A stretch of 64,000 nucleotides of DNA from Minisyncoccia bacterium. Lineage in GTDB: Bacteria > Patescibacteriota > Minisyncoccia > Phycocordibacterales > UBA918. The notes beneath the pieces are model-generated. The model was not told where the DNA came from. It saw only the letters and a program-made list of their open reading frames with translations, and ran no database searches. Where the stretch lies: NCBI GenBank assembly GCA_047639355.1, contig JBLIOC010000001.1:3215-67214 (forward strand). The letters run 5' to 3'. The translations under genes were made by a program, and so were the position numbers. Positions 57-28,179 of the stretch are shown here, piece after piece. Within the stretch, counting starts at the first letter, position 1. Every line of letters starts with the position of its first letter.

Positions 57-2099
57 GTGTATAGTACATACGTGAAATTCGAAATCTCTACAGACAAAAC
101 TCCAGCCGGCGACCAACCAGCTGCAATAAAGGCGCTGGTTGATGGCATTAAGGCTGGCAATCAAGCCCAAACTCTCTTGGGTGTTACCGGATCTGGTAAG
201 ACCTTCACCGCCGCTAATGTTATTCAGCAAATACAAAAACCAACTCTTGTTATTGCTCACAATAAGACATTAGCTGCTCAGCTGGCACAGGAATATGCTG
301 ATTTTTTTCCAAATAATGCAGTGCACTATTTTGTTTCTTACTACGACTATTATCAACCTGAGGCGTATATGCCAACTTCTGATACGTATATTGAAAAAGA
401 ATCGCAAATAAACGAAGAAATTGACAGACTCCGACATGCATCAACACAAGCACTCTTGACTCGTGAGGACGTAATTATTGTCGCTTCAGTATCTTGTATT
501 TACGGGCTAGGTTCTCCAAAGGAATATGAAAAACGACATCTAAAGATTGAGGTTGGTTATGATGCAACCAGAACAGAAATGCTCCGAACATTAATTGGAA
601 TGTATTTTGAAAGAACAAATGCAGATTTGAAGCCAGCTCAATTTCGAGCGGTAGGGAACACGATTGAAGTAATGCCCACCAACGAACGAGTTATATATAG
701 GCTGAAATTTTCCGGAAGCAAAATCACTCACATAACAAAAATTGATGAAATAACCAGAGCCATAATTGATGAGCCAGATGTGTTTTTCTTGTTCCCGGCC
801 AAGCACTTTGTGACACCTGAAGAAGTACGTAAGGTAGCAGCAGCTGATATAAAGGCTGAGCTTGATTCACAGTTACGAAAATTTAAAAAGGAAGGAAAAT
901 TACTGGAAGCGGAGAGAATAAAGCGCCGTACAGACCACGACTTGGCTCTTATTAGAGAAATGGGTTTTTGCAATGGTATAGAAAACTACTCGAGACACTT
1001 TGATCGACGTGCTCCAGGGGAAGCTCCGTACACCCTGCTTTCATATTTTCCACATACACCAGAAGGAAAACCAGACTTTTTGACTATTATTGACGAATCA
1101 CACGTTACAATTCCACAACTTAATGGAATGTATGCCGGTGACCGCTCACGCAAGGTCACGTTGGTAGACTATGGATTTAGACTTCCAAGTACCGTAGACA
1201 ACCGTCCGTTACGATTTGAGGAGTTTCAAGAAAGGGTTGGTCAACAGATATATACCACCGCAACTCCAGGCAAGTTTGAGGCAACAGCAATGAAAGCCGA
1301 AAACTTGAAACCGATTGAACAAATCATTAGACCAACTGGCTTAATAGACCCAGAAATTGAGGTACGAGGTATTGTGGAAGATGGTGCATATCCGGGCCAA
1401 GTGAAAGATTTTATTGCAGAATCAGAGAAAGTAATTGAAGGTGGAGCCAGAGTGCTGGTGACTACTTTAACTAAACGTATGGCCGAAGACTTGGCAGAAT
1501 TTTTGTCTGAAAAGAATATTAAAACCAAGTATATTCACAGTGATGTGAAAACGATGGAACGAATTGAGATCCTGACAGACTTTAGAAAAGGAATATTTGA
1601 CTGTTTGGTAGGTGTGAACCTGCTACGAGAAGGACTCGATTTACCGGAAGTTGAACTTGTAGCTATTCTTGATGCAGATAAAGCTGGATTTTTGCGTAGT
1701 GAAACAGCTCTTATTCAAACAATCGGACGAGCCGCACGAAATGTAAACGGAAGAGTAGTATTATATGCAGATGAGATGACGGTAGCCCTTGAGTATGCAA
1801 TAGGTGAAACAAATCGGAGACGAGAAAGACAAGTTATATATAACAAGAAACATGGTATTACTCCTAAAACAATCGTTAAGGAAATAAAATCAATTGCCGA
1901 TCAAATGCGATCTGAGCACGATGAAACTGTGGAAACGCTTCTTAAAGTGGATATGGAGCTATATAAAAAAAATCCCAAGAAAACTCTTAAAGATAAAAAA
2001 AGACAAATGGAAGAAGCTGTTTCATTGCTTGATTTTGAAACAGCTGCAATAATTCGAGACGAATTAAAATACCTAGAAGAATCAGAAATTGAAAAATAG
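57..2099 (+). CDS. uvrB: Excinuclease ABC subunit B (UvrB)
   Basis: The 680-aa ORF has an N-terminus typical of UvrB (GDQPAAI, LLGVTGSGKTF). It carries the FVSYYDYYQPEAY helicase motif, and a UVR domain (ETAAIIRDEL) at the C-terminus. Confidence 0.95.
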   Translation: MYSTYVKFEISTDKTPAGDQPAAIKALVDGIKAGNQAQTLLGVTGSGKTFTAANVIQQIQKPTLVIAHNKTLAAQLAQEYADFFPNNAVHYFVSYYDYYQPEAYMPTSDTYIEKESQINEEIDRLRHASTQALLTREDVIIVASVSCIYGLGSPKEYEKRHLKIEVGYDATRTEMLRTLIGMYFERTNADLKPAQFRAVGNTIEVMPTNERVIYRLKFSGSKITHITKIDEITRAIIDEPDVFFLFPAKHFVTPEEVRKVAAADIKAELDSQLRKFKKEGKLLEAERIKRRTDHDLALIREMGFCNGIENYSRHFDRRAPGEAPYTLLSYFPHTPEGKPDFLTIIDESHVTIPQLNGMYAGDRSRKVTLVDYGFRLPSTVDNRPLRFEEFQERVGQQIYTTATPGKFEATAMKAENLKPIEQIIRPTGLIDPEIEVRGIVEDGAYPGQVKDFIAESEKVIEGGARVLVTTLTKRMAEDLAEFLSEKNIKTKYIHSDVKTMERIEILTDFRKGIFDCLVGVNLLREGLDLPEVELVAILDADKAGFLRSETALIQTIGRAARNVNGRVVLYADEMTVALEYAIGETNRRRERQVIYNKKHGITPKTIVKEIKSIADQMRSEHDETVETLLKVDMELYKKNPKKTLKDKKRQMEEAVSLLDFETAAIIRDELKYLEESEIEK

Positions 2100-2153
2100 A
2101 TATTCTGTGAGTTATTATCCAGTAAAATCTGGTTTAGATGATAGTATATAGAT

Positions 2154-2960
2154 ATGTCAGTTCTCGCAGGTAAACATTTTCTAATAGTTGGTAGTGAAAA
2201 TCTTCAAATTAGGAATTTGAAAGAAACTCTACAGTCACATGGCGTAATTGCTTATGAAATGTCTTGTGACGAATTATCTCCAGAAAAGGTTCATGAATTA
2301 AATATTGATTTCATTTTTCTTAATTATTTGGACGATAGTAGGAATTGTAAGAATCTGTTAAGCATACTTAGAATGACCGACTTCAGTAAGTTAATTCCAT
2401 CTTTTATACTTGTCGATAATGTAATTTCTAGAATTGAAGAAGTTATTTCATACGGAGCAACTGATTACTTAACACCAGAAGAGTCAACTGAGACTACTCT
2501 TCAAAAAATAAGAACAATTTTTACCGAGGATAATAAATTTACAGGCAGTTCCTCAATAGATATTACTCCCATGGAAACTTCGCCTACAGCAAAAGGAACC
2601 AGAGTATACGTAGTCGAAGATGATCCTCTACTCAGAGACTTGCTTTCAATGAAATTTGTTAAATCTTCTTTTCCGTTTGCCTTTAGTAAAGATGGAAAAC
2701 AGGCCATCGCACACATAAAGCAATTTCAGCCAGATGTAGTTATTTTAGATTTAATGCTCCCAGGAGTGGACGGTTTTGATTTACTTTTTGAAATAAAAAA
2801 TGATCCATTGGTAAAAGATATACCTGTCATAATTTTCTCAAATAGAGATGTTAGTACCGATAGACAAAAAGCACAAGAAATGGGAGCTGCTGCCTTTTAC
2901 GTTAAGGCAATGACGGACCTTTCTGAACTGGTAAAGAAGATAGAGTTGCTAAAAAAGTAA
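2154..2960 (+). CDS. Response regulator made only of receiver domains (degenerate N-terminal REC plus canonical C-terminal REC), with no output domain
   Basis: The C-terminal half reads VYVVEDDPLLRDLL ... VVILDLMLPGVDGFDLL ... VIIFSNRD, the CheY-like acidic pocket. The N-terminal half is REC-like but lacks the canonical Asp pair. No DNA-binding domain follows. Confidence 0.75.
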   Translation: MSVLAGKHFLIVGSENLQIRNLKETLQSHGVIAYEMSCDELSPEKVHELNIDFIFLNYLDDSRNCKNLLSILRMTDFSKLIPSFILVDNVISRIEEVISYGATDYLTPEESTETTLQKIRTIFTEDNKFTGSSSIDITPMETSPTAKGTRVYVVEDDPLLRDLLSMKFVKSSFPFAFSKDGKQAIAHIKQFQPDVVILDLMLPGVDGFDLLFEIKNDPLVKDIPVIIFSNRDVSTDRQKAQEMGAAAFYVKAMTDLSELVKKIELLKK

Positions 2961-2977
2961 TATTATAATTTAATTCC

Positions 2978-5467
2978 ATGGCTGCTGTAAAAAAAATATT
3001 TACGAAATCAAGTACAAAGCTTGTGAAAAAAACACCAGCCCAAAAACCTGTGGCTGTTAAAACCAGCGCAAGTAAAATTTCTAATAGATCGTCTCCAGGC
3101 GCAGCCTCAGAAAGAAAGCCAGTTACAAAAAAGACCACATTAAAGAAAAAGCCTCTAAATAAGAATAGAAAAATTTCCCGCATAAAAAAAGTCGACTCTG
3201 TTTCTTTGCCTAATAATATGAGCTTACGCGCTGTCGAAAAAACTTTTGTTTTCAAGCGTGAGTTCGATAAATTTTTAAGGCAACCAATGTATAGAATTGC
3301 TTATGTAGCAGGCCTTTCTTTCGTACTCGTTGGTTCTTTTTTTGCAGTTAGTCATATTGTCCCGTCTAACTTGCCTTACTTGATGTTGGGCCAGCTAGCA
3401 ACCAATGATTCAATTGACACTACTTCTGATTCTATTTTAAATAGTAGCACGGATCTAGTAACCACTGAGGTGGCAGTTCCTAATCCAACATTTAAGTTTA
3501 TTAGTAACATTCCCGATGAAATCAGTGATGATTTACGAATGACTTTTATTGTCACGAATGCTGAAATGGTTTCTTCCAGACTTGCACGAATTGGCCATCA
3601 TGATTTTTCTAGTTTAAAAACAACTATACTTTCTGATAATAAATATCGAGTTAACATTTCCGTAGCTAATCTCCCAGACGGCATTTATAATTTGAAAATT
3701 TACGTAAAACCATTAAATGGCAACAACGGTACTGTTTTTGAATCAAGAGAATTCAGTGTGGTTAACGATTCATTCGTCGATATAGCTGACGTTTCAATCA
3801 TCTCTGGTACAGAAGATGGACAGATAAACCTAGCTACTGGCACTGAATCTACAGAAACTGGAACCACCCAATTACTTTCAATTACTCCTGATTATGTCGT
3901 CGAAAATCAAGATGTTAGTCGTCCGCCAGACAATGGCCCAACGATAGCCACAACTAATGATACTGATGATGACAGTACTACTGAAAAAGTTGTACCTCCT
4001 TCTTCCAGTGAGCGGTCAGTTACTCCGTTTGCTCTCTTCGTACCCGATGATTCAGTTTTAAATGGTGTAAAAACTGTCAAAGTGTCTGCTCTTAAAGAAT
4101 ATCTGTGGATTGAACTTTACGCTCGACCAATCAGGTCTCTTGATACGATCTTTGTAGCCCGTGCTGTAAAACGAAGCGGGGAATGGTATTTTGTGATCGA
4201 CTCAACTAATCTTCCAAACGGAAAGTATGAGTTTACAGCTAAAACTGATTTTAACAACTCAATCATTAAAACCAGACCGATTCTAGTTTTGGTAGAAAAC
4301 AGCGTGAAACCTTACGTAAAAGAAACTGTTTTGCCAGATGTTTCTGTTGATACAGAGAAGAAAGAAATTTCTGTCCGTGAACTGCCTCCCAAACTGGAAG
4401 ATCAGAATTTTGTTCCTACTGTCAACTTGGACGATGATGTGAAAAGAGAAACTGATGATCTTTTGGTAAATAACGTAGATGATTTTAATACGCTTTTTAG
4501 ACATTACGCAACAGCTCAACAGTCTGGAGATGAGATGCTCATTCGAACAGCGAAAGAAGCACTGGAAGAAAAACGCAAAGCCCTTGTAACGATTACTCTT
4601 CATAACGAAAGGCTTAGATATATATCAGATAATATTGACGAGGAACTTACCTTAAGAGTCATTGAATTGGAAGAGAAAATAAACGTCTTTGAAAAAATCC
4701 GACGTGAAAAAAGTCAAGGCAAAACCGCCATAGATACAGACAAGGACGGAATATCCGATTTTGACGAGATTCACCTATATAATACGAACCCTGAAGCTGT
4801 TGATACAGATAATGATGGTATTACCGATGGAATTGAAATCATGCGTGGTTATAACCCTAATAACGCAGCACCTGAAGCTATTGTCGAGTTTGAGTCGCCA
4901 CGTGAGACTGTAGGACTACTGCGAGATGATGTGTTAACAATGAAAGAAGTCTTGCCTGTTATACAAATAAGTGACGCAAATGATGCACAGATTGTAAAAA
5001 CTGAAATTAGAGGTAAGGGCTTACCAAACAGTTTTGTTACTTTATACATTTATAGTACACCCACTGTAGTAACAATCAGAACTGACGCTGATGGTGAATT
5101 TGTTTACACTTTCGACAAAGAGTTAGAAGACGGGCAGCATGATATCTATATTGCTATGACTGATAATGCGGGAGAAATAATAGCGCAAAGTAGTCCTTTC
5201 TCTTTCTTTAAGCAAGCGCAAGCTTTTACTGTTGTTAATGATACTGGTGCAGGTTTAGTTACTTCAGATAGTGTGAAAGAGTCTGTAAAAAGTTCTTATA
5301 GCACAGTGGTGGGTATGGGAATTTTAGCACTTGGTCTTATTCTACTTATGTTAGGCATGACTCTTCGTCCCAAAAATGATGATTTAAACGAAGACTCAGA
5401 CTATGTGTCCAATCCTAACGCTGACAGAGTTACATTTGATGATAATAAGCATCTAGAATCATCATGA
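2978..5467 (+). CDS. Large membrane-anchored surface protein with thrombospondin type-3 (Ca-binding) repeats and Ig-like domains
   Basis: 829 aa. The N-terminal ~100 aa are Lys-rich and basic (KKTPAQKPVAVK ... KKKPLNKNRK). A TM helix follows (IAYVAGLSFVLVGSFFAV). The TSP3-type repeats read DTDKDGISDFDE ... DTDNDGITDGIE. A C-terminal TM helix is present (VVGMGILALGLILLMLGM). Confidence 0.7.
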   Translation: MAAVKKIFTKSSTKLVKKTPAQKPVAVKTSASKISNRSSPGAASERKPVTKKTTLKKKPLNKNRKISRIKKVDSVSLPNNMSLRAVEKTFVFKREFDKFLRQPMYRIAYVAGLSFVLVGSFFAVSHIVPSNLPYLMLGQLATNDSIDTTSDSILNSSTDLVTTEVAVPNPTFKFISNIPDEISDDLRMTFIVTNAEMVSSRLARIGHHDFSSLKTTILSDNKYRVNISVANLPDGIYNLKIYVKPLNGNNGTVFESREFSVVNDSFVDIADVSIISGTEDGQINLATGTESTETGTTQLLSITPDYVVENQDVSRPPDNGPTIATTNDTDDDSTTEKVVPPSSSERSVTPFALFVPDDSVLNGVKTVKVSALKEYLWIELYARPIRSLDTIFVARAVKRSGEWYFVIDSTNLPNGKYEFTAKTDFNNSIIKTRPILVLVENSVKPYVKETVLPDVSVDTEKKEISVRELPPKLEDQNFVPTVNLDDDVKRETDDLLVNNVDDFNTLFRHYATAQQSGDEMLIRTAKEALEEKRKALVTITLHNERLRYISDNIDEELTLRVIELEEKINVFEKIRREKSQGKTAIDTDKDGISDFDEIHLYNTNPEAVDTDNDGITDGIEIMRGYNPNNAAPEAIVEFESPRETVGLLRDDVLTMKEVLPVIQISDANDAQIVKTEIRGKGLPNSFVTLYIYSTPTVVTIRTDADGEFVYTFDKELEDGQHDIYIAMTDNAGEIIAQSSPFSFFKQAQAFTVVNDTGAGLVTSDSVKESVKSSYSTVVGMGILALGLILLMLGMTLRPKNDDLNEDSDYVSNPNADRVTFDDNKHLESS

Positions 5468-6816
5468 TCTCTCGAGTTCTCACGGCTCTTGAAAGAGGAC
5501 TTCTCGTGATGAGACTAAATTCTCACATGTTATTGGTAGGAGCTCTAGTGTTTGTCTTTCCATTACTATTTGTGTGGGTTACAAATTCGCTTTTTGAGTT
5601 TACAAGCAGCAGTATTGATACGGCTGATAGACATCGTATTGGTGTATTGCATGACTCCATCACAGCCCTGGTGCTCTCTAATGCTCCGACCGAGATAATC
5701 CAGTCTACTATTGAATCAGTTGCTAAGAGGGTCGAGCCCGAGGATCAAATAAAAGTATCGGATATTAAATTATTCAAGGAAGTTAATGGAGAACTTGTTG
5801 TTTTAAATGCTTTCGACCGCGAAACTATCGGAACAACTACAGATTCTGGTGTAAAAATACTCAGGAAGACGCCTTTTTCAGATGTCTTCGACTTCCATAG
5901 TTCAGACTATGATATAGGTAAGAGTATTATTCGCCAATCTTACCAGCGAATCGCAACGCCAGATGGATATTTCTACCTTATGTCCGAGCACGACCGAACA
6001 TCTTTCGAATCCCTTTTGATGTCAAGAAAGCAAACGTCCTATCTCATTCTTTCAGTAATATTTTCTTTTCTTATTGCTTTGGCATACTGGCTTAATAAGC
6101 AAGTTGATTGGAAAAAGAATCATAGTGAATTAGAGGAGCAGCTAAATGAACGGGATCTTTTTTCAAATATGATTGCCCATGAATTTCGTTCCCCATTAAC
6201 TGCCATTAAAGGTTATTCTAGTTTTTTGCAAGAATCTAATAGTTTAAGTAAAGACGAATTACGTTTTGCAGCCAATATCTACAATTCGGCTGAAAGGTTA
6301 GTGGTATTGGTAAACGATTTTCTTGAAGTCTCACGCTTACATTCTGGAAAAATAAAAGTTGAAATCAGTGAGGTAGATTTACGTGACATCCTTACTTCGG
6401 TTAGCGAAGACCTTAAAGGGTTAGCTGAAGGAAAGAACCTAAGACTTGTTTATCAAAAAAGTGCAAACCAAATTTTGTTTAAAACTGACCCTGCAAGAAT
6501 GACCCAAGTTTTAATTAATATAGTTAGCAATGCCGTTAAGTATACTGATAGTGGAACGGTAGAGCTTGAGTGTTCACAGATGCCAGGTGAGGTAACGATT
6601 ACCGTCAAGGACACTGGTACGGGTATTAGTGCTGAAGATCAACAGAAACTGTTTGCCCCATTTACTAGAGTTGGGGATGTAGATGAAGGTTCTACTACTG
6701 GAACTGGTTTAGGTATGTGGATTACTAAACAGCTAGTCGCATTATTGAATGGGACTATCGGCGTCGAATCTATTAAAGGTGTTGGCACACACATTGTTAT
6801 AAGGTTTAAACAATGA
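5464..6816 (+). CDS. Sensor histidine kinase (two TM helices, HisKA plus HATPase_c)
   Basis: H-box HEFRSPLTAIKGY. N, G1 and G2 boxes are present (NAVKYT, VKDTGTGIS, GTGLGM). The start overlaps the preceding stop by 4 nt (ATGA). Confidence 0.9.
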   Translation: MISRVLTALERGLLVMRLNSHMLLVGALVFVFPLLFVWVTNSLFEFTSSSIDTADRHRIGVLHDSITALVLSNAPTEIIQSTIESVAKRVEPEDQIKVSDIKLFKEVNGELVVLNAFDRETIGTTTDSGVKILRKTPFSDVFDFHSSDYDIGKSIIRQSYQRIATPDGYFYLMSEHDRTSFESLLMSRKQTSYLILSVIFSFLIALAYWLNKQVDWKKNHSELEEQLNERDLFSNMIAHEFRSPLTAIKGYSSFLQESNSLSKDELRFAANIYNSAERLVVLVNDFLEVSRLHSGKIKVEISEVDLRDILTSVSEDLKGLAEGKNLRLVYQKSANQILFKTDPARMTQVLINIVSNAVKYTDSGTVELECSQMPGEVTITVKDTGTGISAEDQQKLFAPFTRVGDVDEGSTTGTGLGMWITKQLVALLNGTIGVESIKGVGTHIVIRFKQ

Positions 6817-6900
6817 GATTCCATCAATACTAAGACCGCGTACTACTATAAATTGAATTCTACCTTTGTACACCGTAATTTATTCGGGTAGCTTCTATAA

Positions 6901-6928
6901 TTGCGAATAAGCAGTTTATCAGTATAAT
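6901..6928 (+). promoter_or_regulatory. Candidate sigma-70 promoter upstream of uvrA
   Basis: TTGCGA, a 16-nt spacer, then TATAAT. It lies 24 nt upstream of the GTG start at 6952. Confidence 0.35.
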
Positions 6929-6951
6929 GACCACTAAATCTTCATCACCAT

Positions 6952-9645
6952 GTGGAGAGGCAAAGTAGTGTGAAATCGCTACTAATTCAAACGAAAGAAC
7001 TTATGTCAACATCAAAAAAGAAACCAATAACTGCATGGGAAGAGCCGTCAGGTGCTGAGGCACCCAAGATTATTGTTCGTGGTGCCAGGACTCATAATCT
7101 CAAAAATATTGATGTTGAGATGCCTCGCGGAAAAATGATAGCTATTACCGGCCCGTCAGGCTCTGGAAAGTCATCACTTGCCTTCGATACTATTTTCGCT
7201 GAGGGTCAACGTCGATATGTTGAGTCTCTCTCACCCTATGCCAGACAATTTTTGAATAAAATGCAAAAACCTGATGTTGATGAAATTTCAGGTCTTTCGC
7301 CAGCAATATCAATTGATCAAAAGTCTGCTTCTCGAAACCCTCGTTCTACAGTCGCTACAATTACAGAAATTTACGACTACCTACGTATTGTTTATGCCAG
7401 GATCGGACAACCGTACTGTTTAGATGTTGATGTACCAATCCAAAAGCTATCCCAAGATGAAATCCTAGGTATAATTTTAAAATCAATTGAGGACAAAGAA
7501 GTAAAAAAGGCAAAAAAACAGCAGTCAGAAAGTGTGTTAGGAATAGAACTATCAAAGGGTAGGGTTTCAATATTTTCACCTGTCGTAGTTGGCCGGAAGG
7601 GTGAGTATTATCAGATGCTCTATGATTTGCTAAACAAGGGCTACGAGGCAGTAAAAATTGACGGTAATATAAAGCAATTAAGAGAGAAAATTGTTTTAAC
7701 AAAGACTAAACGGCATGATATAGATGTACTGGTTGATGAAATATACGTAAGTGAGTTTATTAACGACCCAAAAGGTTCACGTGAACGATTGTCGGAAGCT
7801 GTTGAATTGGCTTTGGCTGAATCAAAAGGCCTTGTAAAAATTGAAAGTCCTGATGGCGCAGAGAGAACTCTTTCCGCAAAATTTATTTGCCCAATTGACG
7901 GTTCATCTTTTCCTGAAGTTGAACCTAGATTGTTTTCCTTCAATTCACCGTACGGAGCCTGTCCTGAGTGTAACGGACTTGGAGTTATAGGTATTTTTCA
8001 AAGCGATGAATGTCCAAAATGTGAAGGAGCCAGACTACGTTCTGAGGCCCTTAGGGTATATCTAGGTGGAGATGATGAACATCTTGGCACGAACATTGTT
8101 GATTTTACTCGAATGACGGTTGGCCAAGCCGCTGATTTTGTTTCTGGACTAAAGCTTTCAAAAAAAGATCATGACATAGCTTGGCCAGCTTTGCGGGAAG
8201 TTATTGAGCGTCTTGATTTTATGAAAGATGTTGGAATTGAATACCTAACTCTTGATCGTCGAGCAAATACTTTATCTGGCGGGGAAGCGCAGCGAATTAG
8301 ACTAGCTTCACAGCTGGGTTCTGGTTTAGTGGGTGCGCTGTATGTTCTTGACGAACCAACCATTGGTCTTCATCAGCGAGACAATGACAAGTTAGTTAAA
8401 ACTCTATTAGAACTGCGAGATCTAGGAAATACTATCATCGTTGTAGAACACGATGAGGACACTATTCATGCTGCTGATTATCTAATTGATATCGGACCAG
8501 GAGCTGGTGTACGCGGAGGCGAGGTTATAGTGGCTGACTACATGCAAAAACTTTTGTCTGAGAAAACGAATACTTCTGGTTCTGTCACTCTTGATTATCT
8601 TCGTGGTGACAAAAAAATTGCAGTGCCTGAGCGTCGCACTAGTGAAAAAGGGAAGATTAAAATAACTGGAGGAAAGGCTTTTAACATTAAAAATCTTAAC
8701 GTTGATATTCCACTTGGTCGGCTGATTTGTGTGACGGGCGTGTCAGGCTCTGGCAAGTCTACCTTTATGTACGAAATCCTAGACAGAAACTTGAAAGCTA
8801 GATTGGAAAAACGTCATCGTACAGCTAAGACATATAATTGTAAATCTATTACGGGCACGGAGTATCTAGGTCGGTCGGTGCTGATTAATCAGTCACCGAT
8901 TGGTCGCACTCCACGAAGTAATCCAGCTACGTACACCGGTGCCTTTACACATATTCGTGATTTATTTGCGGCCACAAGTGAAGCTAAAGCGCGGGGTTGG
9001 AAGCCGGGAAGATTTAGTTTCAATGTTAAAGGTGGACGCTGTGAAGCCTGTCAAGGAAATGGAGTCATTGCGGTGGAGATGCATTTTTTACCAACCGTCT
9101 ATGTTACATGTGATATTTGTGACGGCAGTCGTTTTACAAATGAAACACTAGAGGTGACTTTTAGAAAAAAGAATATTTATGAAGTTCTTCATTTAACTAT
9201 AGAAGATGCTCACAAATTTTTTGTTGATATACCAGCTATTCAAGAAAGATTAAAAGCAATGCTTGATGTTGGTTTAGGTTATCTAGAGCTAGGTCAAAGC
9301 GCCACCACTCTATCGGGAGGTGAAGCGCAGCGTGTAAAAATTGCTTCTGAACTGTATCGACCGCACACCCAAAAAACAATTTACCTTCTTGATGAGCCAA
9401 CTATTGGCTTACACTATGAAGACGTAAAAAAGCTTATTGAAATTTTACAGAAACTTGTGAATGCGGGGAATACTGTCATGGTTATTGAACACAATCTGGA
9501 TTTAGTCAAAAGCGCAGATTATATTATTGATATTGGTCCCGAAGGAGGACAAAAGGGCGGTCAAGTTGTAGCAAAAGGTACTCCTGAAGAAGTTGCTGAT
9601 AATCCTAAGTCATATACTGGAGCTTACCTTAAAAAAGTTCTCTGA
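6952..9645 (+). CDS. uvrA: Excinuclease ABC subunit A (UvrA)
   Basis: Two ABC ATPase modules ([22 protein letters not shown], two LSGGEAQR signatures). Zn-finger cysteines are present ([16 protein letters not shown]). The frame opens at GTG 6952; an alternative ATG start is at 7003 (MSTSKKK). Confidence 0.93.
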
Positions 9646-9684: not shown

Positions 9685-10920
9685 ATGAATAAGTCTGATC
9701 TAGCAAGAAAAAAATTGCCTGACAAACCAGGTGTCTACTTCTTTCTTGGTACAAGAAAGAAAATTCTTTACATCGGAAAAGCAACTTCACTTATGAATCG
9801 TGTGCGTAGCTATTTTACGAGTGATATTAAAGAGAAACGATCCTCCTTGATTGAAAAAATGGTGCTAGAGGCAAAGACCATTGAGTACACAAAAACTGAC
9901 AGTGTTTTGGAAGCCTTAATTCTTGAGACTAATCTCATACGTACACATAAGCCCTTTTATAATACGCGAAGTAAAGATGATAAAAGTTACAATCATTTAA
10001 TTATTACAAATGAGGGATTTCCTAGAGTATTAGTGGTGAGGGGTAAGGATTTGACTGAGCAGTTTGTGGAGTCAGCTATTAAATATCACTTTGGGCCGTT
10101 TCCAAGCGGTCAATTATTTCGTGAAGCTTTAAAAATAGTTCGTAAATTATTTCAATTTTATGACACTAAAGCCCCAATTGGTGAAGAGAAAAATAAGATG
10201 GCCAAAGGAAAGATTGATTTTAATCGGCAGATCGGCCTTTATCCAGAAAAACAATCAAAGCGTGAATACAACAAGACAATTCGACACTTGCGACTATTTT
10301 TTGAAGGGAAGAAGCACCAGCTTATTAAAGAGCTAGAAATGGAGATGGTCACTTTGGCCAACGTCGAAAAATTTGAAGCTGCTAATGTGATAAAGCAACG
10401 TATATTTGCTCTTAATCATATACAAGATATTGCCCTTATAAAAGATGAATCTCGAGTCTACCGTGATGAGAAACGTGTGCGGATTGAAGCCTATGATATT
10501 GCCCACCTTCAAGGTGAAGACATGGTTGGAGTAATGACTGTTCTTGAAAGTGGGGAACCTGTCAAAAGTGAGTATCGTAAATTTAAAATTGGAAACTTCA
10601 CTAAAGCCAATGATACAGGCGCTCTAAAGGAAGTTCTCAGTCGAAGACTGAAGCACGAAGAATGGCCAATGCCACAAATTATAGTTGTGGATGGTGGTGC
10701 GGCCCAAAAGAATGCAGCTCAGCTTATTTTGAGCCAAAAAAATATGGTGATTCCGGTTGTGGCTGTCGTCAAAGACGATCGTCATAAACCAGTCCGCCTA
10801 ATCGGTCAAAAAATAATTCTCGAATTGCATAAACATTCCATTTTGTTAGCTAACGCTGAGTCACACCGTTTTGCTGTTAACTATCATCGAACTAAGAGAA
10901 GTAAGCATTTACGTGCATAA
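9685..10920 (+). CDS. uvrC: Compact UvrC (GIY-YIG, UVR and RNase H-like endonuclease domains; no C-terminal HhH2)
   Basis: GIY-YIG N-terminus (GVYFFLGTRKKILYIGKA). UVR-type helix (VTLANVEKFEAANVIKQRIFAL). C-terminal nuclease domain (RIEAYDIAHLQGEDMVGV ... VVDGGAAQ). It is 411 aa against about 600 in canonical UvrC. Confidence 0.8.
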   Translation: MNKSDLARKKLPDKPGVYFFLGTRKKILYIGKATSLMNRVRSYFTSDIKEKRSSLIEKMVLEAKTIEYTKTDSVLEALILETNLIRTHKPFYNTRSKDDKSYNHLIITNEGFPRVLVVRGKDLTEQFVESAIKYHFGPFPSGQLFREALKIVRKLFQFYDTKAPIGEEKNKMAKGKIDFNRQIGLYPEKQSKREYNKTIRHLRLFFEGKKHQLIKELEMEMVTLANVEKFEAANVIKQRIFALNHIQDIALIKDESRVYRDEKRVRIEAYDIAHLQGEDMVGVMTVLESGEPVKSEYRKFKIGNFTKANDTGALKEVLSRRLKHEEWPMPQIIVVDGGAAQKNAAQLILSQKNMVIPVVAVVKDDRHKPVRLIGQKIILELHKHSILLANAESHRFAVNYHRTKRSKHLRA

Positions 10921-11211: not shown

Positions 11212-12480
11212 ATGTTCTTCATTGCCGTATTAAACAAATCTAAAATGCTTAAAATTCACACAAAATTTTGTTACCTAGCAATCATTTCAATACTAACGGT
11301 TTTATTCTTTGCAGCTAGTCTTTCATTCATCAACACAGCTAATGCTGGTTCTGCAGACAGTCTGACTGGCTACGCCTGGAGTGATAATATTGGCTGGATA
11401 AGCTTCAATGATACAAATAATTCTGGAACGGTCAATTACGGTGTTGATGTTGCTACCGGGTCGGGTTTATTCTCTGGCTACGCCTGGAGTGATAATATTG
11501 GCTGGATATCCTTTTGGCCTGGTGACGTAATTGGTTGCCCCTCTGGTCCCGGTACTTGTAACCCTACTCTTGACTGGAACACTGGTGTAATTACCGGCTG
11601 GGCTCGTGCTTGTGCTGGAACTGCAGACGCGGCCTGTGCACTTACCTCTTCCCGAACAGACGGCTGGGACGGCTGGATTAGTCTTTCTGGAGTAGCTACC
11701 GATTCTTCAGCTTCAACGTATGGAGTTCTTGTTAATGTTACCACTGGTGCTTTTTCTGGACAAGCTTGGGGTAGCACCAATGTTGGTTGGATTTCGTTTT
11801 CAGGTACAGAAGGTACAGGATGGGGTGTTGATGGTATTCTCCCCCCTGCATCTGCAACCCTTAGTTCAGATCCAGTACCCGGCTGCATCATTCCGAATGG
11901 TGATAGTACTTGCCCTGTAGATTTAACCTGGAGTATACTATTCTCAAGTGACACAAGTGTATACAATTTCTCGCTTGGTACCACAATCTCAACCGTTGCT
12001 GCTGGTACAGAACCTTCTTACCCACTAAACCCTGGAGTAAACGTTATTGAAGCTCGAGACGGTAGTAATATCCTCAGGACTATTACTCCTACTGCTGGCT
12101 GTTCCACACCACTCGATTTCTGGGACAGTGCTGAGTGTGGTACTATACCTACTCTAGATATTACTCCCAGTCTGTCTGCTGGCTCTCAGATAATTAGATC
12201 TGGTGAATCAGCTGATGTAGAAATTGTCATTATTTCAGATTACAATTTAACTTGTCAACTGAATGGAGCAGAAATAACTCCTGTCGATCTTACTTACGAT
12301 TCTGCAACTAGTGAAATCAGAAATAGTTCAAATAGCGCCATACCTGCTACTGGTTACCCTACAAGACAACTTTATTCTAAGCAAGCTATTTCCATTGTTT
12401 GTACAGTCGACGCAGACCCAACTATCTCACTTTCAGGTGAATACATTATTGAGGTGATTGGTACCGTACAGGAGATTTAG
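11212..12480 (+). CDS. Secreted tandem-repeat protein (four GxAWSxNxGWISF repeats plus an Ig-like C-terminal region)
   Basis: Signal peptide with probable cleavage at TANA/GS; the probable start is at the internal Met near 11245. Four repeats of (G)YAWSDNIGWISF / GQAWGSTNVGWISF. An exact 35-nt DNA repeat occurs at 11366-11400 and 11474-11508. Confidence 0.6.
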   Translation: MFFIAVLNKSKMLKIHTKFCYLAIISILTVLFFAASLSFINTANAGSADSLTGYAWSDNIGWISFNDTNNSGTVNYGVDVATGSGLFSGYAWSDNIGWISFWPGDVIGCPSGPGTCNPTLDWNTGVITGWARACAGTADAACALTSSRTDGWDGWISLSGVATDSSASTYGVLVNVTTGAFSGQAWGSTNVGWISFSGTEGTGWGVDGILPPASATLSSDPVPGCIIPNGDSTCPVDLTWSILFSSDTSVYNFSLGTTISTVAAGTEPSYPLNPGVNVIEARDGSNILRTITPTAGCSTPLDFWDSAECGTIPTLDITPSLSAGSQIIRSGESADVEIVIISDYNLTCQLNGAEITPVDLTYDSATSEIRNSSNSAIPATGYPTRQLYSKQAISIVCTVDADPTISLSGEYIIEVIGTVQEI

Positions 12481-15069: not shown

Positions 15070-15072
15070 AAT

Positions 15073-18000
15073 ATGATTGATACAAAGTCCCCAGCTCCTT
15101 CTACAACTCCAACATCAAAGTCAGCTCGATCTTGGCTTATTATGGCAGCGGTGGGTGTTTTTGCAGCTATTGCTTTCGGTGTTTTATACCTATTCGTTCT
15201 AGCCCCATCCATTCCCGACGGAAATATTGGATGGTTTTTGTTTTCATTTGCGACAGGTCTTACGATGATCGTTATGCCGTGCACACTTCCACTGGCATTT
15301 GTAATCGTTCCTCTGTCTATGGGAAAGGGTCTTATTCGCGGTATCGGAATGTCTCTTGCATTCGGTCTTGGTATAGCTGTCACTCTTTCTCTTTATGGAG
15401 TAGCGGCAGCTCTTCTTGGAGGTGTAGCTATCGACGCTCTTGGTGCTGATCTTGATTCAATTAAAAACTGGGTCTATACAGTCGCTGGTGTCTTTGCTCT
15501 CGTTTTTGCATTGAGTGAAATTGGTTTGATGAATTTTCATATGCCCACATACAAGGGTGCAGCTCCGGCTTCGATACAGAAGCATGGAGAGTTGATAAAA
15601 GCTTTTATGTTGGGGCTTTTCCTTGGAAATGTTGGAGTAGGATGTCCTCATCCAGCTACTCCACTTATTTTGATAGAAATCGCTTCAAGTGGTGACGTGT
15701 TATACGGATGGCTTCTATTCCTGACTCATGCAATCGGCCGAATACTACCGTTGCTTCTATTAGCATTTATGGCAATCATTGGTGTAAATGGACTCAACTG
15801 GCTAATGTCCCGAAAGGATGCTGTTGAACGAACAACCGGCTGGGCAATGGTTTTCGTAGCAGGCTTTATTCTTACTCTAGGATTGTTCTCTCACGATTGG
15901 TGGGTCAATTCTGGAATTCACAGCGGACTTGAGACACTTACGCAAGAAGCTAGGTTCAACGCGCTTATAAACGAAACGCTTGATACCAATGTAGCTCACG
16001 CGCACGGATTAGAAGAAGGGGCTGGTCTATTTGGGTTACCTCTGGAGTGGGGTAATTGGTTCTTAGTGACGGTTTGGCTATTGCCAATGTGGTTATGGTA
16101 TAGAAAAAAGAAGAAGGACATTGAAGAAGGAGCTGACTTGTGTCAGGAAAAAGTCTTAAAGATAAAGAGAAATTTCCTTATTGTGATTGCTATATTTATC
16201 ATAATGATATTCACGCACTTTTTACCACAGAATTTTTACCTGAATTCTATTAGTGGTGGTGGTCACGGTGAAACGACTAGCCACGATGGTGCTGACGGCC
16301 ATCATGATGAAGGTGCATCAGCTAACCCTGACGGTATCCATGCAATGCCAGACGGCACAATCATGAATGCTAATGGAGACGTGCTAAAAGGTGGACATCT
16401 AATGCCGGACGGCACAATCATGCTTGCAGACGGAACGACGATAGGAGGTACTCCTTCGAACATACCTGCAGAAGCAACGCTGTATGGAGTTGATGTAGAA
16501 GATCTTCCGTTTGCTAACGTCCCTGAGACAGTAGAATTGGTAGATGGTGATAGTTATGATATCACTGCATTCTATGTACAGAAAGAGATAGGGAACAGAA
16601 CACTTCGTATGCTCGCATACAACGGCTCGGTTCCTGGACCCTTTATTAAGGCTCCGCAAGGAGCTGAGGTGACAATCAACTTTACGAACAACACAGACTT
16701 GGACCAAACCATCCACTCACACGGTCTACGATTAGACAACAACTTTGATGGAGTACCTGGTGTAACCCAGAATGTTGTTAAGCCTGGAAATTCACACTCT
16801 TATACTATTAAGTTTGAAGATGCCGGGGTTTATTGGTATCACCCACACACTCGTGATGATTACGGACAGGAAATGGGTCTGTACGGTAACTATATTGTAG
16901 AACCAATTGATGGTTACACATCACCAGTTAATCGACAAATTCCACTGGTTATTGATGACATTCTCATTGAGAACGACAAGATCTTTGACTTCTATAAAGA
17001 AATTACAAATTTTGCTTTACTTGGTCGATTCGGAAACGAATATTTGGTAAACGGTGAACAGGATTACTCACTCGAACTAGAGAAAGGTGAAGTTGTAAGG
17101 TTCTTGGTTACAAATGTTTCAAATGCAAGATCGTACAGTCTGTCGCTGCCAGGCGCGGAAATGAAAATGGTCGGTGCTGACATTGGACACTACGAGCGAG
17201 AGGAATTTGCAGAAGATTTCTTGATTTCGCCTTCTGAGAGAATGATTGTAGAAGCTTACTTCAAAGAATCGGGTACTTATTCTTTGACTCACACCACTCC
17301 GGACGGTGAGGTCGTACTTACTGAGTTTGTGGTTGGAGAAGAGTCAGTAGATGAATCATATGCTGAAGAATTCGACATTCTAAACGAAAACCAAGACGTA
17401 ATAGAAGAGTTCAGCACTTTCCGATCATATATTAGTAAAGACGCAGATAAGAAGCTATTACTTACTGTTGACCTAGAAGGACAGGTAGATCATAGTGCCC
17501 ACGGACATGCTACTGATGATGCTGCAGTGGATCCATATGCTGGTATTCATGCAATGCCTAACGGTGACGTTATGCTCGGATCTGGAGAAGTTATAACAGG
17601 TGCTACCGTAATGGATGACGGTACGATTGTCCTTGCTGACGGTACTGTTCCTGGCGCTCCACCTGTTCCAAAGACAAGACTTGAATCACTACAATGGAAT
17701 GACGAAACAATGTCCGACAAGGTAAACACTTCAGAGAATGTTACTTGGAAGATGATCGATGAAGAGACAGGAGCAAGCAGTATGATGATTCCAATAGCTG
17801 ACTGGACTTTCGTAGAGGGAGACATTGTCAAGATCCGATTAACTAATGATTCAACAGCCGATCATGTAATGCAACATCCAATCCACCTACACGGACAACA
17901 ATTTGTTGTTCTGACTGAAAATGGAGAGATTAATGACAATATGGCATGGAAGGACACTGTATTAGTATTCCCTGGTGAAGTCGTTGAAATATTAGTAGAC

Positions 18001-18834
18001 ATGAGCAACTTAGGGGAGTGGATGAGCCACTGTCATATTTCTGAGCACTTGCATGCCGGGATGATGATGCAATTTAGGGTAGAAGATGAATCTGGTTATG
18101 CAACAGGAGATGAATTCAGGTCTACTGTAACGGCTGGAATGGTTCACAAATCAAACGCTCCTACTATAAAGAAAAGCTCACGAGAATTTACCTTTGAGTC
18201 GGAAACTTCATCATTTGGCTACACAGTTTATGCTGAAAAAACCAGGTTCAAAGTAGGTGAAAAACAAGAGATCACACTGACTTTGTTTGATCCTGAGTTA
18301 AATGGTGTTGTGTTGTCTGAGAAGTATCCCGACCCACTTGGAATAACATTTGTGAAGAGTAATAATACTCAGAACTTTTACACTTACCCTGGGAACACAA
18401 CCTTCGATGCCGTCGATCATGGAGGATCAGCTCACGACAATAGTGATGGGCATCACAACGACACGATAGCTCCCTCATCAGAGCCGGTACATGACAACAG
18501 TGACGGGCATCATGGGTTTAATCTAATACCTACAGCTCACGCGCACGGCGGCACAGATGATGGTCACGCAGATGCTACTGGTCAAGTTTACACTTATACT
18601 GTGCCTGTAGCCTTCCCGGAAATTGGTGCGTACAAAGCCTTTGTTGAATTCGTGCCAGAAGGTGTAGATAAGCCGATTATTTTGAGTATGGATATAGAAG
18701 TGATCTCCTCGAACTTCTCAGTAGACAACTATGGTTGGAGCGTAAGTATGAAGTGGTGGATATTACTCATAGCCTCCCTGATCCTGACTGTACCTTTGGT
18801 GATCGGAGTTCGTAAGTACATTAACGTTAAATAA
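15073..18834 (+). CDS. Giant fusion of a CcdA/DsbD-like thiol-disulfide transporter TM domain with a multicopper oxidase, His/Met-rich Cu-binding repeats and a C-terminal TM anchor
   Basis: The N-terminal ~340 aa are polytopic with CcdA-type Cys motifs (IVMPCTLPLAF; GVGCPHPATPL). Multicopper oxidase motifs present: HSHGLR, WYHPHT, HPIHLHGQQF, HCHISEHLHAGMMM. Repeated GIHAMP(D/N)G..M and DNSDGHH segments. Final TM WWILLIASLILTVPLVIGV. Confidence 0.8.
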   Translation: MIDTKSPAPSTTPTSKSARSWLIMAAVGVFAAIAFGVLYLFVLAPSIPDGNIGWFLFSFATGLTMIVMPCTLPLAFVIVPLSMGKGLIRGIGMSLAFGLGIAVTLSLYGVAAALLGGVAIDALGADLDSIKNWVYTVAGVFALVFALSEIGLMNFHMPTYKGAAPASIQKHGELIKAFMLGLFLGNVGVGCPHPATPLILIEIASSGDVLYGWLLFLTHAIGRILPLLLLAFMAIIGVNGLNWLMSRKDAVERTTGWAMVFVAGFILTLGLFSHDWWVNSGIHSGLETLTQEARFNALINETLDTNVAHAHGLEEGAGLFGLPLEWGNWFLVTVWLLPMWLWYRKKKKDIEEGADLCQEKVLKIKRNFLIVIAIFIIMIFTHFLPQNFYLNSISGGGHGETTSHDGADGHHDEGASANPDGIHAMPDGTIMNANGDVLKGGHLMPDGTIMLADGTTIGGTPSNIPAEATLYGVDVEDLPFANVPETVELVDGDSYDITAFYVQKEIGNRTLRMLAYNGSVPGPFIKAPQGAEVTINFTNNTDLDQTIHSHGLRLDNNFDGVPGVTQNVVKPGNSHSYTIKFEDAGVYWYHPHTRDDYGQEMGLYGNYIVEPIDGYTSPVNRQIPLVIDDILIENDKIFDFYKEITNFALLGRFGNEYLVNGEQDYSLELEKGEVVRFLVTNVSNARSYSLSLPGAEMKMVGADIGHYEREEFAEDFLISPSERMIVEAYFKESGTYSLTHTTPDGEVVLTEFVVGEESVDESYAEEFDILNENQDVIEEFSTFRSYISKDADKKLLLTVDLEGQVDHSAHGHATDDAAVDPYAGIHAMPNGDVMLGSGEVITGATVMDDGTIVLADGTVPGAPPVPKTRLESLQWNDETMSDKVNTSENVTWKMIDEETGASSMMIPIADWTFVEGDIVKIRLTNDSTADHVMQHPIHLHGQQFVVLTENGEINDNMAWKDTVLVFPGEVVEILVDMSNLGEWMSHCHISEHLHAGMMMQFRVEDESGYATGDEFRSTVTAGMVHKSNAPTIKKSSREFTFESETSSFGYTVYAEKTRFKVGEKQEITLTLFDPELNGVVLSEKYPDPLGITFVKSNNTQNFYTYPGNTTFDAVDHGGSAHDNSDGHHNDTIAPSSEPVHDNSDGHHGFNLIPTAHAHGGTDDGHADATGQVYTYTVPVAFPEIGAYKAFVEFVPEGVDKPIILSMDIEVISSNFSVDNYGWSVSMKWWILLIASLILTVPLVIGVRKYINVK

Positions 18835-18835
18835 T

Positions 18836-19333
18836 ATGAATAAGTTTGCAGTTCTTGGGATCGTACTAGTACTCATCTTAGTTGGTGGGGTAGCTTACAA
18901 GCAGCTTGTCGGTAGTGCTGACGCGCCAGTTGAGACAGGGATAGTGAAAGAATACACAATTATTTCTAAGAAACTTGAGTGGAGATTTGAACCGGAATCT
19001 ATCGAGGTCGAGCAAGGAGACAGAATTATCGCAACAGTTATCAACGAAGATAATTTTGATCACGGTTTTGCTATTGACGCCTTCGGTATTAGTCAAAGAC
19101 TTCCGGCTAACGGGACGATTGTAGTGGAGTTCGTAGCGACTAAGTCTGGAGAGTTTCCTTTCTACTGTTCTGTTTCCTGTAGTAGTAGTGATAACCCCAC
19201 TTTTGATTTACTAAATGGCGAAGTGCAGACTGGTCCATACGCAGGCACATTTCAGGGTCACTTCGAACACGTAGGTAGGTTTGTTGTTAAAATGTTGCTA
19301 ACGGCAGGGATTCTGAACGAAGAAGAAAATTAG
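18836..19333 (+). CDS. Membrane-anchored cupredoxin-like (CuA-type?) protein
   Basis: N-terminal TM helix, beta-rich domain with HGFAIDAFG ... FYCSVSC ... H..M spacing reminiscent of CuA/cupredoxin ligands. Its position in the copper cluster supports the call. Confidence 0.45.
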   Translation: MNKFAVLGIVLVLILVGGVAYKQLVGSADAPVETGIVKEYTIISKKLEWRFEPESIEVEQGDRIIATVINEDNFDHGFAIDAFGISQRLPANGTIVVEFVATKSGEFPFYCSVSCSSSDNPTFDLLNGEVQTGPYAGTFQGHFEHVGRFVVKMLLTAGILNEEEN

Positions 19334-19368
19334 AACAAAGAAGCACATTAAAAATTTATCTATAAAAT

Positions 19369-21729: not shown

Positions 21730-21820
21730 CCTAGCAGATAAGAAGAGTCGCGGACTTATTGTTCTCGGCTCTTTCTGTGTATTGCAATAAAAGACACGCA
21801 ACCAGTGATATACTTACAGT

Positions 21821-22036
21821 ATGCAAAAAATAGAATTAAATATAGAAGGGATGCACTGCGGTGGATGTTCCACAGGAATACAGATGGTTACAGAAATGCT
21901 AGACGGGGTAACTTCATCATTTGTTGATTTAGATGCCAAGAAGGGAACTTTCGAGCTTGATGGAACTGGTGCCAAAGTAGAAGATATTATTGGAGAAATC
22001 ACTAAACTAGGTTACACAGCAACAGTCATTGAGTAA
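21821..22036 (+). CDS. copZ: Copper chaperone, HMA domain
   Basis: 71 aa with the GMHCGGCS metal-binding motif. Confidence 0.85.
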   Translation: MQKIELNIEGMHCGGCSTGIQMVTEMLDGVTSSFVDLDAKKGTFELDGTGAKVEDIIGEITKLGYTATVIE

Positions 22037-22038
22037 TT

Positions 22039-22557
22039 ATGGATATTTTCACCTTACTTATTATTGGTCACCTGGTTGGGACTGTTTTAGGAGTCGGTGG
22101 AGCAACGATGATTGAGTTTCATCTAAATAAAGCTTTGAGTGACGGAAATATGTCTTTGGACGAACGTAGTATGCTCGGTCTAAACTTTGTAGTTTTGAGG
22201 ATAGGTTTAGTTTTAGCTTTAGTAACCGGCTTTGGTTTTCTTGTGTATTACGTCACACATGGTCAAGCGTTCCGTCTTCAAAACCCTGTGCTATGGGCAA
22301 AACTGTTTATGGTTGTGATTGTTGGTGTAAATGCTCTGTTACTTCAATCACATAAGATTGGGTTGTACTGGGGGAGCGCTCTATCATTTGTTACTTGGTG
22401 GGCGACCATGATTTTAGGAATATTCTTAACCAACAACGTCCGGTTTGATTTTATTACAATAATGATTGGTTACTTACTAGCAGTTGTGGCCGGAGCATTT
22501 ATACTCCACAAGATACGCGATTACGTTAAATTAAGATATAAAGCGAAAAATGCCTGA
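22039..22557 (+). CDS. Small polytopic membrane protein, paralog A
   Basis: 172 aa with 4-5 TM helices. Clear similarity to the ORF at 24339-24860: LGVGGATMIEF ... DERSMLGLNFVVLRIGLVLALVTG versus LGVGSSTLAIV ... ETERRMMGVVYVVLRVATLMILLTTG. Confidence 0.6.
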   Translation: MDIFTLLIIGHLVGTVLGVGGATMIEFHLNKALSDGNMSLDERSMLGLNFVVLRIGLVLALVTGFGFLVYYVTHGQAFRLQNPVLWAKLFMVVIVGVNALLLQSHKIGLYWGSALSFVTWWATMILGIFLTNNVRFDFITIMIGYLLAVVAGAFILHKIRDYVKLRYKAKNA

Positions 22558-24263: not shown

Positions 24264-24338
24264 AAACCTATTCGCTCTTCCTGTAAATCCACAACTCTGT
24301 AATTTTTTTTTGTAAATAATACTGCTATCATATACCAT

Positions 24339-24860: not shown

Positions 24861-24871
24861 AAGTAGATTCT

Positions 24872-24901: not shown

Positions 24902-24908
24902 ATTGCTT

Positions 24909-28175: not shown

Positions 28176-28179
28176 AAGA

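Follow-up and report, generated by a model that had tools for sequence, protein, structure and literature searches.

In several bacterial two-component systems, the operon that encodes the histidine kinase (HK) and its response regulator (RR) also encodes an extracytoplasmic or membrane protein: in qseEGF, the accessory gene sits between those for the kinase and the RR, and YycH and YycI are accessory proteins of the kinase WalK. QseG is reported to activate QseE (PMC6075780, PMC12691602), LiaF is reported as a negative regulator of LiaRS (PMC3543457) and cbrX is translationally coupled to cbrA (PMC6591292). We found a comparable gene arrangement in a 64,000-nucleotide stretch of DNA from Minisyncoccia bacterium (Patescibacteriota; GenBank assembly GCA_047639355.1, contig JBLIOC010000001.1; hereafter, the window), where the genes for an RR, a predicted membrane protein that we term X and an HK follow one another between uvrB and uvrA, with uvrC next after uvrA by open reading frame (ORF) and Pfam analysis (Table 1). 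As in the QseE/QseG/QseF, LiaF/LiaS/LiaR and WalK-YycH/YycI operons, a gene for an extracytoplasmic or membrane protein accompanies those for an HK and an RR. The tight packing that an earlier note on this DNA had described holds for these three plus-strand ORFs: the TGA stop codon of X (5465-5467) shares an ATGA (5464-5467) with the ATG start codon of the HK (5464-5466), for which the reported translational link between cbrX and cbrA is a precedent. We put at about even the chance that the locus is a three-component, Patescibacteria-specific module, in which X serves as a co-sensor of the HK and the RR acts by protein-protein contact. Unlike QseG, LiaF and YycH/YycI, to which it has no sequence or domain similarity and no Pfam or NCBIfam match, X is a far bigger protein with an anchor at each end and is made up of Ig-like, TSP3 and Big_13 domains; and unlike the QseEGF, LiaFSR and WalK systems, the RR has no DNA-binding output and the interaction between X and the HK is putative.

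The main result concerns the gene order in relatives, which were gathered by a protein search and a scan of the GTDB species genomes and which provide adjacency evidence from about 25 loci (labelled L001-L097). The relatives fall into long forms of X like that of the window and short forms of about 430-675 aa, which come from more distant Patescibacteria, begin with a signal peptide or an N-terminal anchor and have no Lys-rich N-terminal tail. X and the HK are adjacent in every long-form locus examined (the window, L001-L012 and L089-L091). Among these, the order uvrB-RR-X-HK-uvrA(-uvrC) recurs in L001-L008 and L010, and L009 is a 3.5-kb contig with the X-HK pair only. The same uvrB-RR-X-HK-uvrA arrangement is seen in L089-L091, which were chosen via RR homologues 43-53% identical to that of the window and include a closed genome (CP060229.1, 994,774 bp); all three of the RR homologues that were looked up, of at least 120 listed, lie between uvrB and uvrA. 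The comparison of uvrB-uvrA synteny that the earlier note had called for thus finds the arrangement kept across the long-form clade. L011 (5882-11803) and L012 (5859-12061) have uvrB-X-HK-uvrA without an RR gene and keep the tail of X, which is therefore independent of a neighboring RR gene.

The short-form loci place the pair in other surroundings: overlapping by ATGA and flanked by tRNAs and by genes for a phosphoribosyltransferase and the CCA enzyme (L013), downstream of a transketolase (L092, L093, L096 and L097), in the reversed order HK-X beside a Fic gene (L018) and in a uvrC-uvrA-X-HK order in a lineage with UvrA 41-47% identical to that of the window (L095, 985-7467); X-HK is also found in L014. 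A receiver gene is absent from all seven short-form loci searched (L013, L014, L018, L092, L093, L095 and L096; tblastn, E<=1e-3), and a 230-aa ORF upstream of the pair in L013 has no meaningful Pfam match at E<=10 and so is no recognizable RR. As is expected of the accessory gene of a three-component system, X lies next to the kinase gene in several contexts, with gaps of -4 to +21 nt in 16 measured loci and an ATGA overlap in seven of them, and the pair persists where kinase-core identity has dropped to about 38%, at loci without a link to uvr as well. The earlier note had proposed that finding the three genes at unrelated loci would argue against a functional unit; the X-HK pair does occur away from uvr and yet stays adjacent, which favors a unit, if one of X and the HK, with the RR being limited to one clade and missing from L011, L012 and the short-form loci. 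X and the HK are an old, tightly coupled pair and the conserved core of the unit, in place of a two-component operon wrapped around an adhesin as first proposed, and the RR, the Lys-rich tail and the position between uvrB and uvrA are later additions confined to one clade. The loci can be arranged in a series of gene contents, namely the pair, the pair with the tail and the pair with both the tail and the RR, showing a two-component system gathering parts; the order of the tail before the RR is not readable from gene content alone.

Within the clade, identity to the window is 74-95% for UvrB and UvrA and goes down to 39% for the RR, 30% for X and 35% for the HK, and the module therefore evolves much faster than its neighbors. 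The upstream synteny (AI-2E transporter, PGA_cap, FKBP and TGT genes) is also conserved in the clade, and the position at uvr therefore partly reflects general collinearity. In the X family at large, at least 140 of the top 150 representatives at 50% identity are long forms; 2032 representatives are retrieved at E<=1e-30, some of them large proteins with TSP3 repeats that are unrelated to X, and a profile of the C-terminal module has 384 hits, mostly short forms.

Individual short-form loci also display features of their own. The database call for X in L095 (377 aa) is truncated, the actual ORF being 4107-6134 (675 aa), and in this protein a signal peptide and three repeats with cysteines, each about 60-70 aa long, precede the Ig, TSP3 and Big_13 part. 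In L094 (1-2109), X is followed by a Peptidase_M50 gene of the site-2 protease type and then by genes for BipA and a Sigma70_r4/HARE-HTH protein; this single case may be a hint that the C-terminally anchored X undergoes regulated intramembrane proteolysis in some lineages.

The HK agrees with its earlier description as a classic membrane kinase: HisKA (57.2 bits) and HATPase_c (93.7 bits) both exceed the Pfam cutoffs, all of the boxes are intact (H239 in HEFRSPL, N-box at 356, G1 at 383, F at 397 and G2 at 413) and hydropathy gives two hydrophobic segments, at about residues 22-40 and 192-210. It is a class-I (HisKA) transmembrane (TM) sensor kinase, with a predicted membrane topology in which these two segments bracket a sensor domain. 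This domain has neither a Pfam match (E<=10) nor a PDB sequence match, and no HAMP or PAS domain was detected in the HK. The sensor domain is alignable across all 17 X-linked kinases (439-460 aa); in the others, identity to the HK of the window is mostly 18-38% in the sensor region (87% in one close relative) and 38-85% in the catalytic core. By these alignments, the X-linked kinases form one family.

X is a single uninterrupted ORF, with full-length homologues of 762-840 aa and no frameshift, which supports its earlier reading as one protein; NCBI holds an identical copy, a hypothetical protein from a metagenome-assembled genome of Candidatus Paceibacteria. The two TM segments, the TSP3 repeats and the Ig-like domains that had been noted in it are recovered by hydropathy, Pfam and AlphaFold2 (AF2), the model being poor overall (predicted local distance difference test, pLDDT, 57.6; predicted template modeling score, pTM, 0.25) and confident within domains. 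Hydrophobic segments lie at residues 110-128 and 776-794. Lys and Arg make up 28 of the first 100 residues, against 5 for Asp and Glu, the ectodomain is acidic and the second TM segment (TM2) is followed by R797 and K799; both hydropathy and charge fit a predicted topology with the N- and C-termini inside and about 640 residues outside the membrane, in line with the topology that the earlier note had wanted checked. The helix at 83-127 in the model includes the first TM segment (TM1), with L77, P78, R84, V110, F115 and G119 invariant in this region. The strands of the first two Ig-like sandwiches (171-261 and 364-439) are modeled at a pLDDT of about 78-88, with an above-cutoff Pfam Y_Y_Y match at 220-252 and a disordered Ser/Thr/Asp-rich linker between the sandwiches at 265-347, and they are followed by a helical region without a meaningful Pfam family at E<=10. 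Next come the TSP3 loops, with DxDxD motifs at 586 and 609 and a TSP3_bac match (PF18884) at 609-630 (27.3 bits against a cutoff of 25); all of the Asp, Gly and Glu positions of the loops are invariant in the long forms, and the loops are predicted from this pattern to bind calcium. The Big_13 match (PF19077) at 675-742 (48.9 bits against a cutoff of 27, E 1e-12) falls within a modeled beta-sandwich at 654-745, and its PNSFVTLYIYS motif is kept in distant short forms. TM2, with invariant G786, L789, L792, G793, L796 and R797, is present in all of the short and long forms examined.

Conservation along X, measured as mean pairwise identity among 12 long forms, is markedly uneven: the TSP3 loops (59%), Big_13 (59%) and TM2 (48%) stand above the distal Ig-like domains (15-28%) and the helical region (29%), with the distal domains and linkers overall at 15-29%. 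The C-terminal module (the helical-TSP3-Big_13-TM end) is the only part common to long and short forms, the first TSP3 loop being kept in the short forms and the second being degenerate in several of them (L018, L016 and L014). The constrained part of X is its membrane-proximal module. The tail, which is restricted to the long form, has an identity of 26%, yet its net charge stays at +14 to +32 in each of the 12 long forms. Residues 1-104 have no match in NCBIfam and none in Pfam at E<=0.01; of the earlier label of a histone-like Lys-rich N-terminus, the Lys-rich part stands, whereas membership of the histone H1/Hc1-like family was rejected, the likeness being compositional only.

X resembles SiiE, the Ca_tandemer/Blp2 adhesins, CglD and MtsD in its Ig-like sandwiches and putative calcium-binding acidic loops. 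SiiE is its top Foldseek match (E 1.3e-5), the TM-scores of the matches being low (0.1-0.25); against PDB structures, Foldseek returned only generic tandem Ig/FN3 folds and no functional lead, and the profile of X found nothing significant among PDB sequences. All of its NCBIfam matches, including those to Blp2, Ca_tandemer, MtsD and CglD, are far below cutoff (e.g., 29 bits against 750). Proteins of the SiiE/Blp2/CglD type are far larger, have tens of repeats and are secreted or lipid-anchored, whereas X combines two TM anchors with three Ig-like domains and a pair of TSP3 loops. With 829 aa, few repeats and no type I secretion system genes adjoining it, X was rejected as a giant calcium-binding repeat adhesin of the SiiE, RTX or Bap type, and the words "giant" and "huge" that had been attached to it do not apply.

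The RR combines two receiver folds and no output domain by Pfam, AF2 and Foldseek. Its C-terminal half matches Response_reg at residues 151-263 (E 5.9e-25, 88 bits) and carries the complete DD-D-S-K set of a receiver (E155, D156, D157, D199, S229 and K251, invariant in the family alignment), with the fold confirmed by the AF2 model; its best PDB sequence matches are RR468, CheY and the first REC domain of PleD. The N-terminal half alone matches Response_reg at E 0.048 over profile positions 2-109 of 111. The AF2 model, which was built on 36 homologues (pLDDT 81.7), shows a disordered linker between two (beta-alpha)5 domains, both of them complete (8-124 and 151-267), the N-terminal domain being modeled from b1 to a5 at a pLDDT of about 65-91. 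In these 36 homologues, N57 in place of the acceptor Asp and G13 in place of the acidic pair are invariant or nearly so, and the N-terminal half is thus, by the alignment and the model, a degenerate, aspartate-less pseudo-receiver. The description of the RR as an output-less double-REC regulator accordingly stands for the two folds and the missing output and has to be amended for the first domain. The pseudo-receiver is itself strongly conserved, with invariant K7, G13, L26, P82, G101, D104 and Y105. Two of its cysteines, C38 and C65, are nearly invariant across the 36 homologues. Receiver domains do not usually show this, and the two residues could conceivably serve in redox chemistry or metal binding. 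There are 344 RR homologues, 120 of which were listed and are mostly 256-295 aa with near-full coverage, and the RR has no match above an NCBIfam cutoff.

The closest described architecture is that of DrdR of Xanthomonas campestris, a tandem-receiver regulator with the key residues D148, D198, T231 and K253 that binds the pilus ATPases PilB and PilT (PMC13507683). Like DrdR, the RR has an inactive pseudo-receiver placed before a functional receiver and lacks an output domain, a likeness of architecture only; the two are close in size, and D156/D157, D199, S229 and K251 of the RR are near the DrdR positions. In contrast to DrdR, the pseudo-receiver of the RR is modeled as a complete (beta-alpha)5 fold and its gene is linked to that of a kinase, and no pilus genes corresponding to the PilB/PilT output occur among the window ORFs scanned. 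The top Foldseek matches of the RR model are the tandem-receiver proteins PleD, ShkA and 3mf4/3luf, of which PleD and ShkA are the best over both domains (E 2e-12 to 4e-10, about 270-280 columns). PleD, however, has a receiver followed by a pseudo-receiver and a GGDEF output, whereas the RR has the reverse order and no output, and ShkA is a hybrid kinase, whereas the RR has no kinase domain. Queries with REC and kinase-core sequences (phmmer) found no other REC or kinase genes in the window, and a Pfam scan of about 25 of its larger ORFs, which returned housekeeping, metal and efflux genes and a few ORFs without a match, detected no genes for an Hpt protein, a type IV pilus or an RR output that binds DNA. 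The search for an Hpt or output partner that the earlier note had suggested therefore yields none among the ORFs scanned within this 64-kb window, and its expectation of a protein-protein or relay output for the RR is a fair inference for a regulator that lacks an output domain and for which these scans revealed no partner.

We posit the following mechanism for the module. X would be anchored by its C-terminal TM helix, and in this clade also by the N-terminal one, and would display outside the membrane a calcium-stabilized TSP3/Big_13 stalk carrying variable Ig-like domains. As an accessory co-sensor, it would use the part formed by TSP3, Big_13 and TM2 to contact the TM helices of the HK or its sensor domain of about 150 aa, with the fast-evolving distal Ig-like domains meeting an external cue, such as a cell surface, the state of the envelope or Ca2+. 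The surface contact or host attachment that the earlier note had suggested as the signal is contradicted by none of these observations. In turn, the HK would control whether D199, in the canonical receiver of the RR, is phosphorylated, and the RR would act on another protein via its conserved pseudo-receiver half, since it has no DNA-binding domain. The adjacency of X and the HK, the single kinase family, the gradient of conservation along X, the intact boxes of the HK and the residues of the RR are observed; the physical contact of X and the HK, the direction and nature of the signal, the partnership of the RR with the HK and the target of the RR are what we infer from them.

Several points weigh against this co-sensor mechanism. 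Tight gene coupling is equally expected for a co-expressed, non-signaling protein; in the short-form lineages and in L011 and L012, there is no adjacent RR, leaving their kinases without an assigned phosphoacceptor; in the window, it is adjacency that pairs the RR with the HK; the poor overall model of X leaves its domains without a defined arrangement; and the Lys-rich tail has no role in the scheme. Moreover, the X relative in L015 has no kinase alongside, and in L094 a short-form X at the contig end, with its upstream side cut off, has the Peptidase_M50 gene downstream instead, so that the TSP3-Big_13-TM module is not strictly tied to a kinase. The main rival, which we regard as possible though doubtful, is that X is a structural or adhesive surface protein, co-transcribed with the system or regulated by it, and that the HK senses alone. 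This would suit an HK with its own extracytoplasmic domain conserved as a family, the Ig-like, TSP3 and Big_13 domains typical of adhesins together with the weak NCBIfam matches to such proteins, the kinase-less relative in L015 and distal domains that evolve fast, like exposed surface proteins. It is harder to square with a coupling kept in at least five genomic contexts, in both gene orders and down to about 38% core identity, which is unusual for cargo, with the strongest conservation being in the membrane-proximal module and TM2 rather than the distal, putative binding end and with an RR that has no DNA-binding domain and hence no direct transcriptional control of X. A variant of the co-sensor mechanism, in which X is a sensor of divalent cations (Ca2+), with occupancy of the TSP3 loops altering the rigidity of its stalk and this being relayed to the HK, appears unlikely to us. 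The two DxDxDGxxDxxE loops do not vary among the long forms, the first is kept in the short forms and TSP3 is among the most conserved regions of X, but the second loop degenerates in several short forms, and TSP3 loops in other proteins are usually structural calcium sites rather than sensors.

The position of the genes invites a link to nucleotide excision repair or to DNA, by co-transcription with uvrB, uvrA and uvrC and binding of DNA at the membrane by the tail of X; we consider this quite unlikely. In its favor, the uvrB-[RR]-X-HK-uvrA order on one strand is found in all of the long-form loci with recovered flanks, the gaps in the window are short with no terminator predicted in 1900-7200, the distant lineage of L095 has the pair next to uvrA in a different order, and the tail keeps its positive charge throughout the long forms. 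Conversely, the pairs in L013, L018, L092, L093, L096 and L097 lie away from uvr, the collinearity that extends through the AI-2E, PGA_cap, FKBP and TGT genes and is genome-wide explains much of the position, the X of L095 lacks a Lys-rich tail and starts with a signal peptide instead, the tail of the window protein matches no DNA-binding family and the RR is unable to regulate transcription directly. Promoter-like sites before the RR gene (2089-2118) and before uvrA (6901-6928) would allow separate units, but their number is not above chance (16 in 1900-7200 against a shuffled expectation of 16.1). A more speculative proposal, which we rate as very improbable, is that the X-HK pair is a Patescibacteria-wide device with which these reduced and probably symbiotic cells sense contact with the surface of a partner cell, and that the tail was gained to couple its signal to the nucleoid or DNA handling in the Paceibacteria clade, which would explain the pair being beside uvrA in two very distant lineages. 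The least credible reading, to the point of near dismissal, is that the block arrived recently, as a mobile insertion, in the space between uvrB and uvrA. The block does interrupt an apparent uvrB-uvrA-uvrC series, and its GC content is slightly lower than that of the window (0.372 against 0.402), but this difference is within the window's own variation, the uvrB/uvrA arrangement is found in all of the relatives sampled, including the closed genome, even as X falls to about 30% identity against 74-95% for UvrB and UvrA, and there is no recombinase or mobility gene among the called neighbors, flanking repeats and tRNAs not having been searched for in the window. With synteny conserved and composition similar, a recent horizontal insertion was rejected; the earlier note was right about the location of the block within the uvrB-uvrA-uvrC series, but its word "inserted" does not suit an old, clade-fixed arrangement.

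Returning to the co-sensor module, its novelty lies in a new family and a new combination, as accessory kinase proteins and output-less tandem receivers are already known concepts; it is no new principle but a widespread, uncharacterized variant of accessory-protein two-component signaling in Patescibacteria. We did not find it described in the literature on two-component systems of the candidate phyla radiation (CPR) or on Ig-like or calcium-binding kinase-linked proteins of Parcubacteria, and none of the RR, X and HK exceeds a curated NCBIfam cutoff beyond generic domains. Patescibacteria (CPR) have genomes of about 1 Mb in which very few signaling genes are known, and a kinase kept across the group and invariably paired with one uncharacterized surface protein likely matters for sensing the surroundings or the host. 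The conserved TSP3-Big_13-TM module, set against the variable distal domains, offers a clear construct for binding tests.

Table 1. Genes and predicted protein regions at the locus, in window coordinates (residue numbers refer to each protein).
Feature	Position	Strand	Description and basis
RR gene	2154-2960	+	268 aa; ORF list
Pseudo-receiver, RR residues 8-124	2175-2525	+	AF2 fold, weak Pfam match, residue losses
Canonical receiver, RR residues 151-267	2604-2954	+	E155 D156 D157, D199, S229, K251
Protein X gene	2978-5467	+	829 aa; single ORF
X 1-76, disordered Lys-rich tail, predicted cytoplasmic	2978-3205	+	pLDDT <50, charge
X 73-128, juxtamembrane helix (LPNNMSxRAxEK motif) and TM1	3194-3361	+	AF2, hydropathy, invariant residues
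X 167-440, two Ig-like beta-sandwiches (167-262 and 348-440)	3476-4297	+	AF2, Pfam
X 486-580, helical bundle or coiled coil	4433-4717	+	AF2 helices 486-578, pLDDT 80-91
X 581-632, two TSP3-type loops (D586-E597 and D609-E620)	4718-4873	+	Pfam, motif, invariance
X 654-746, Big_13 Ig-like domain; PNSFVTLYIYS motif is the family signature	4937-5215	+	Pfam, AF2
X 772-797, C-terminal TM anchor, glycine-rich helix ending LR	5291-5368	+	Hydropathy, AF2 helix 772-795
HK gene	5464-6816	+	450 aa; ORF list
HK sensor domain, residues 41-191, ~150 aa, predicted extracytoplasmic	5584-6036	+	Between predicted TMs
uvrB	57-2099	+	Flank, outside module; Pfam UvrB, UvrB_inter, Helicase_C
uvrA	6952-9645 as listed; probable start 7003	+	Flank, outside module; Pfam, homologue alignments
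uvrC	9685-10920	+	Flank, outside module, after uvrA; Pfam

The uvrA ORF as listed begins with a GTG, its homologue alignments begin at residues 9-29 and its relatives are 878-896 aa. Because the alignments begin there, we place the true start probably at the ATG at 7003 (MSTSKKKP...), which would make the gap between the HK gene and uvrA about 186 nt. Farther downstream, between uvrC and ddl, the window encodes a 422-aa protein (11212-12480) with an N-terminal TM segment, repeated GYAWSDNIGWISF motifs and no Pfam match; the relatives L002 and L005 have a UDP-glucose dehydrogenase gene there, which in this lineage has been replaced by that of an unknown protein with surface repeats.

Other genes of the window are unusual in their domain composition or context. 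A leucyl-tRNA synthetase of 949 aa (34321-37170) carries a NUDIX domain at residues 381-517 (E 5.6e-13) just after the editing domain, which is an unusual fusion. A protein in which Sigma70 region 4 is joined to a HARE-HTH domain is encoded both in the window (37239-38300) and on the unrelated Nomurabacteria contig L094 (4161-5192), and may be a conserved CPR transcription factor, its role being unassigned. A metal and efflux cluster (15070-29754) includes a 1254-aa fusion of DsbD_TM and a multicopper oxidase, a P-type ATPase with an HMA domain (19366-21729) and, on the minus strand, an AcrB-type resistance-nodulation-division (RND) pump (24909-28193) with a HlyD-type adaptor (28180-29754). 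The lineage is generally regarded as being without an outer membrane, making the RND pump and its adaptor unexpected.

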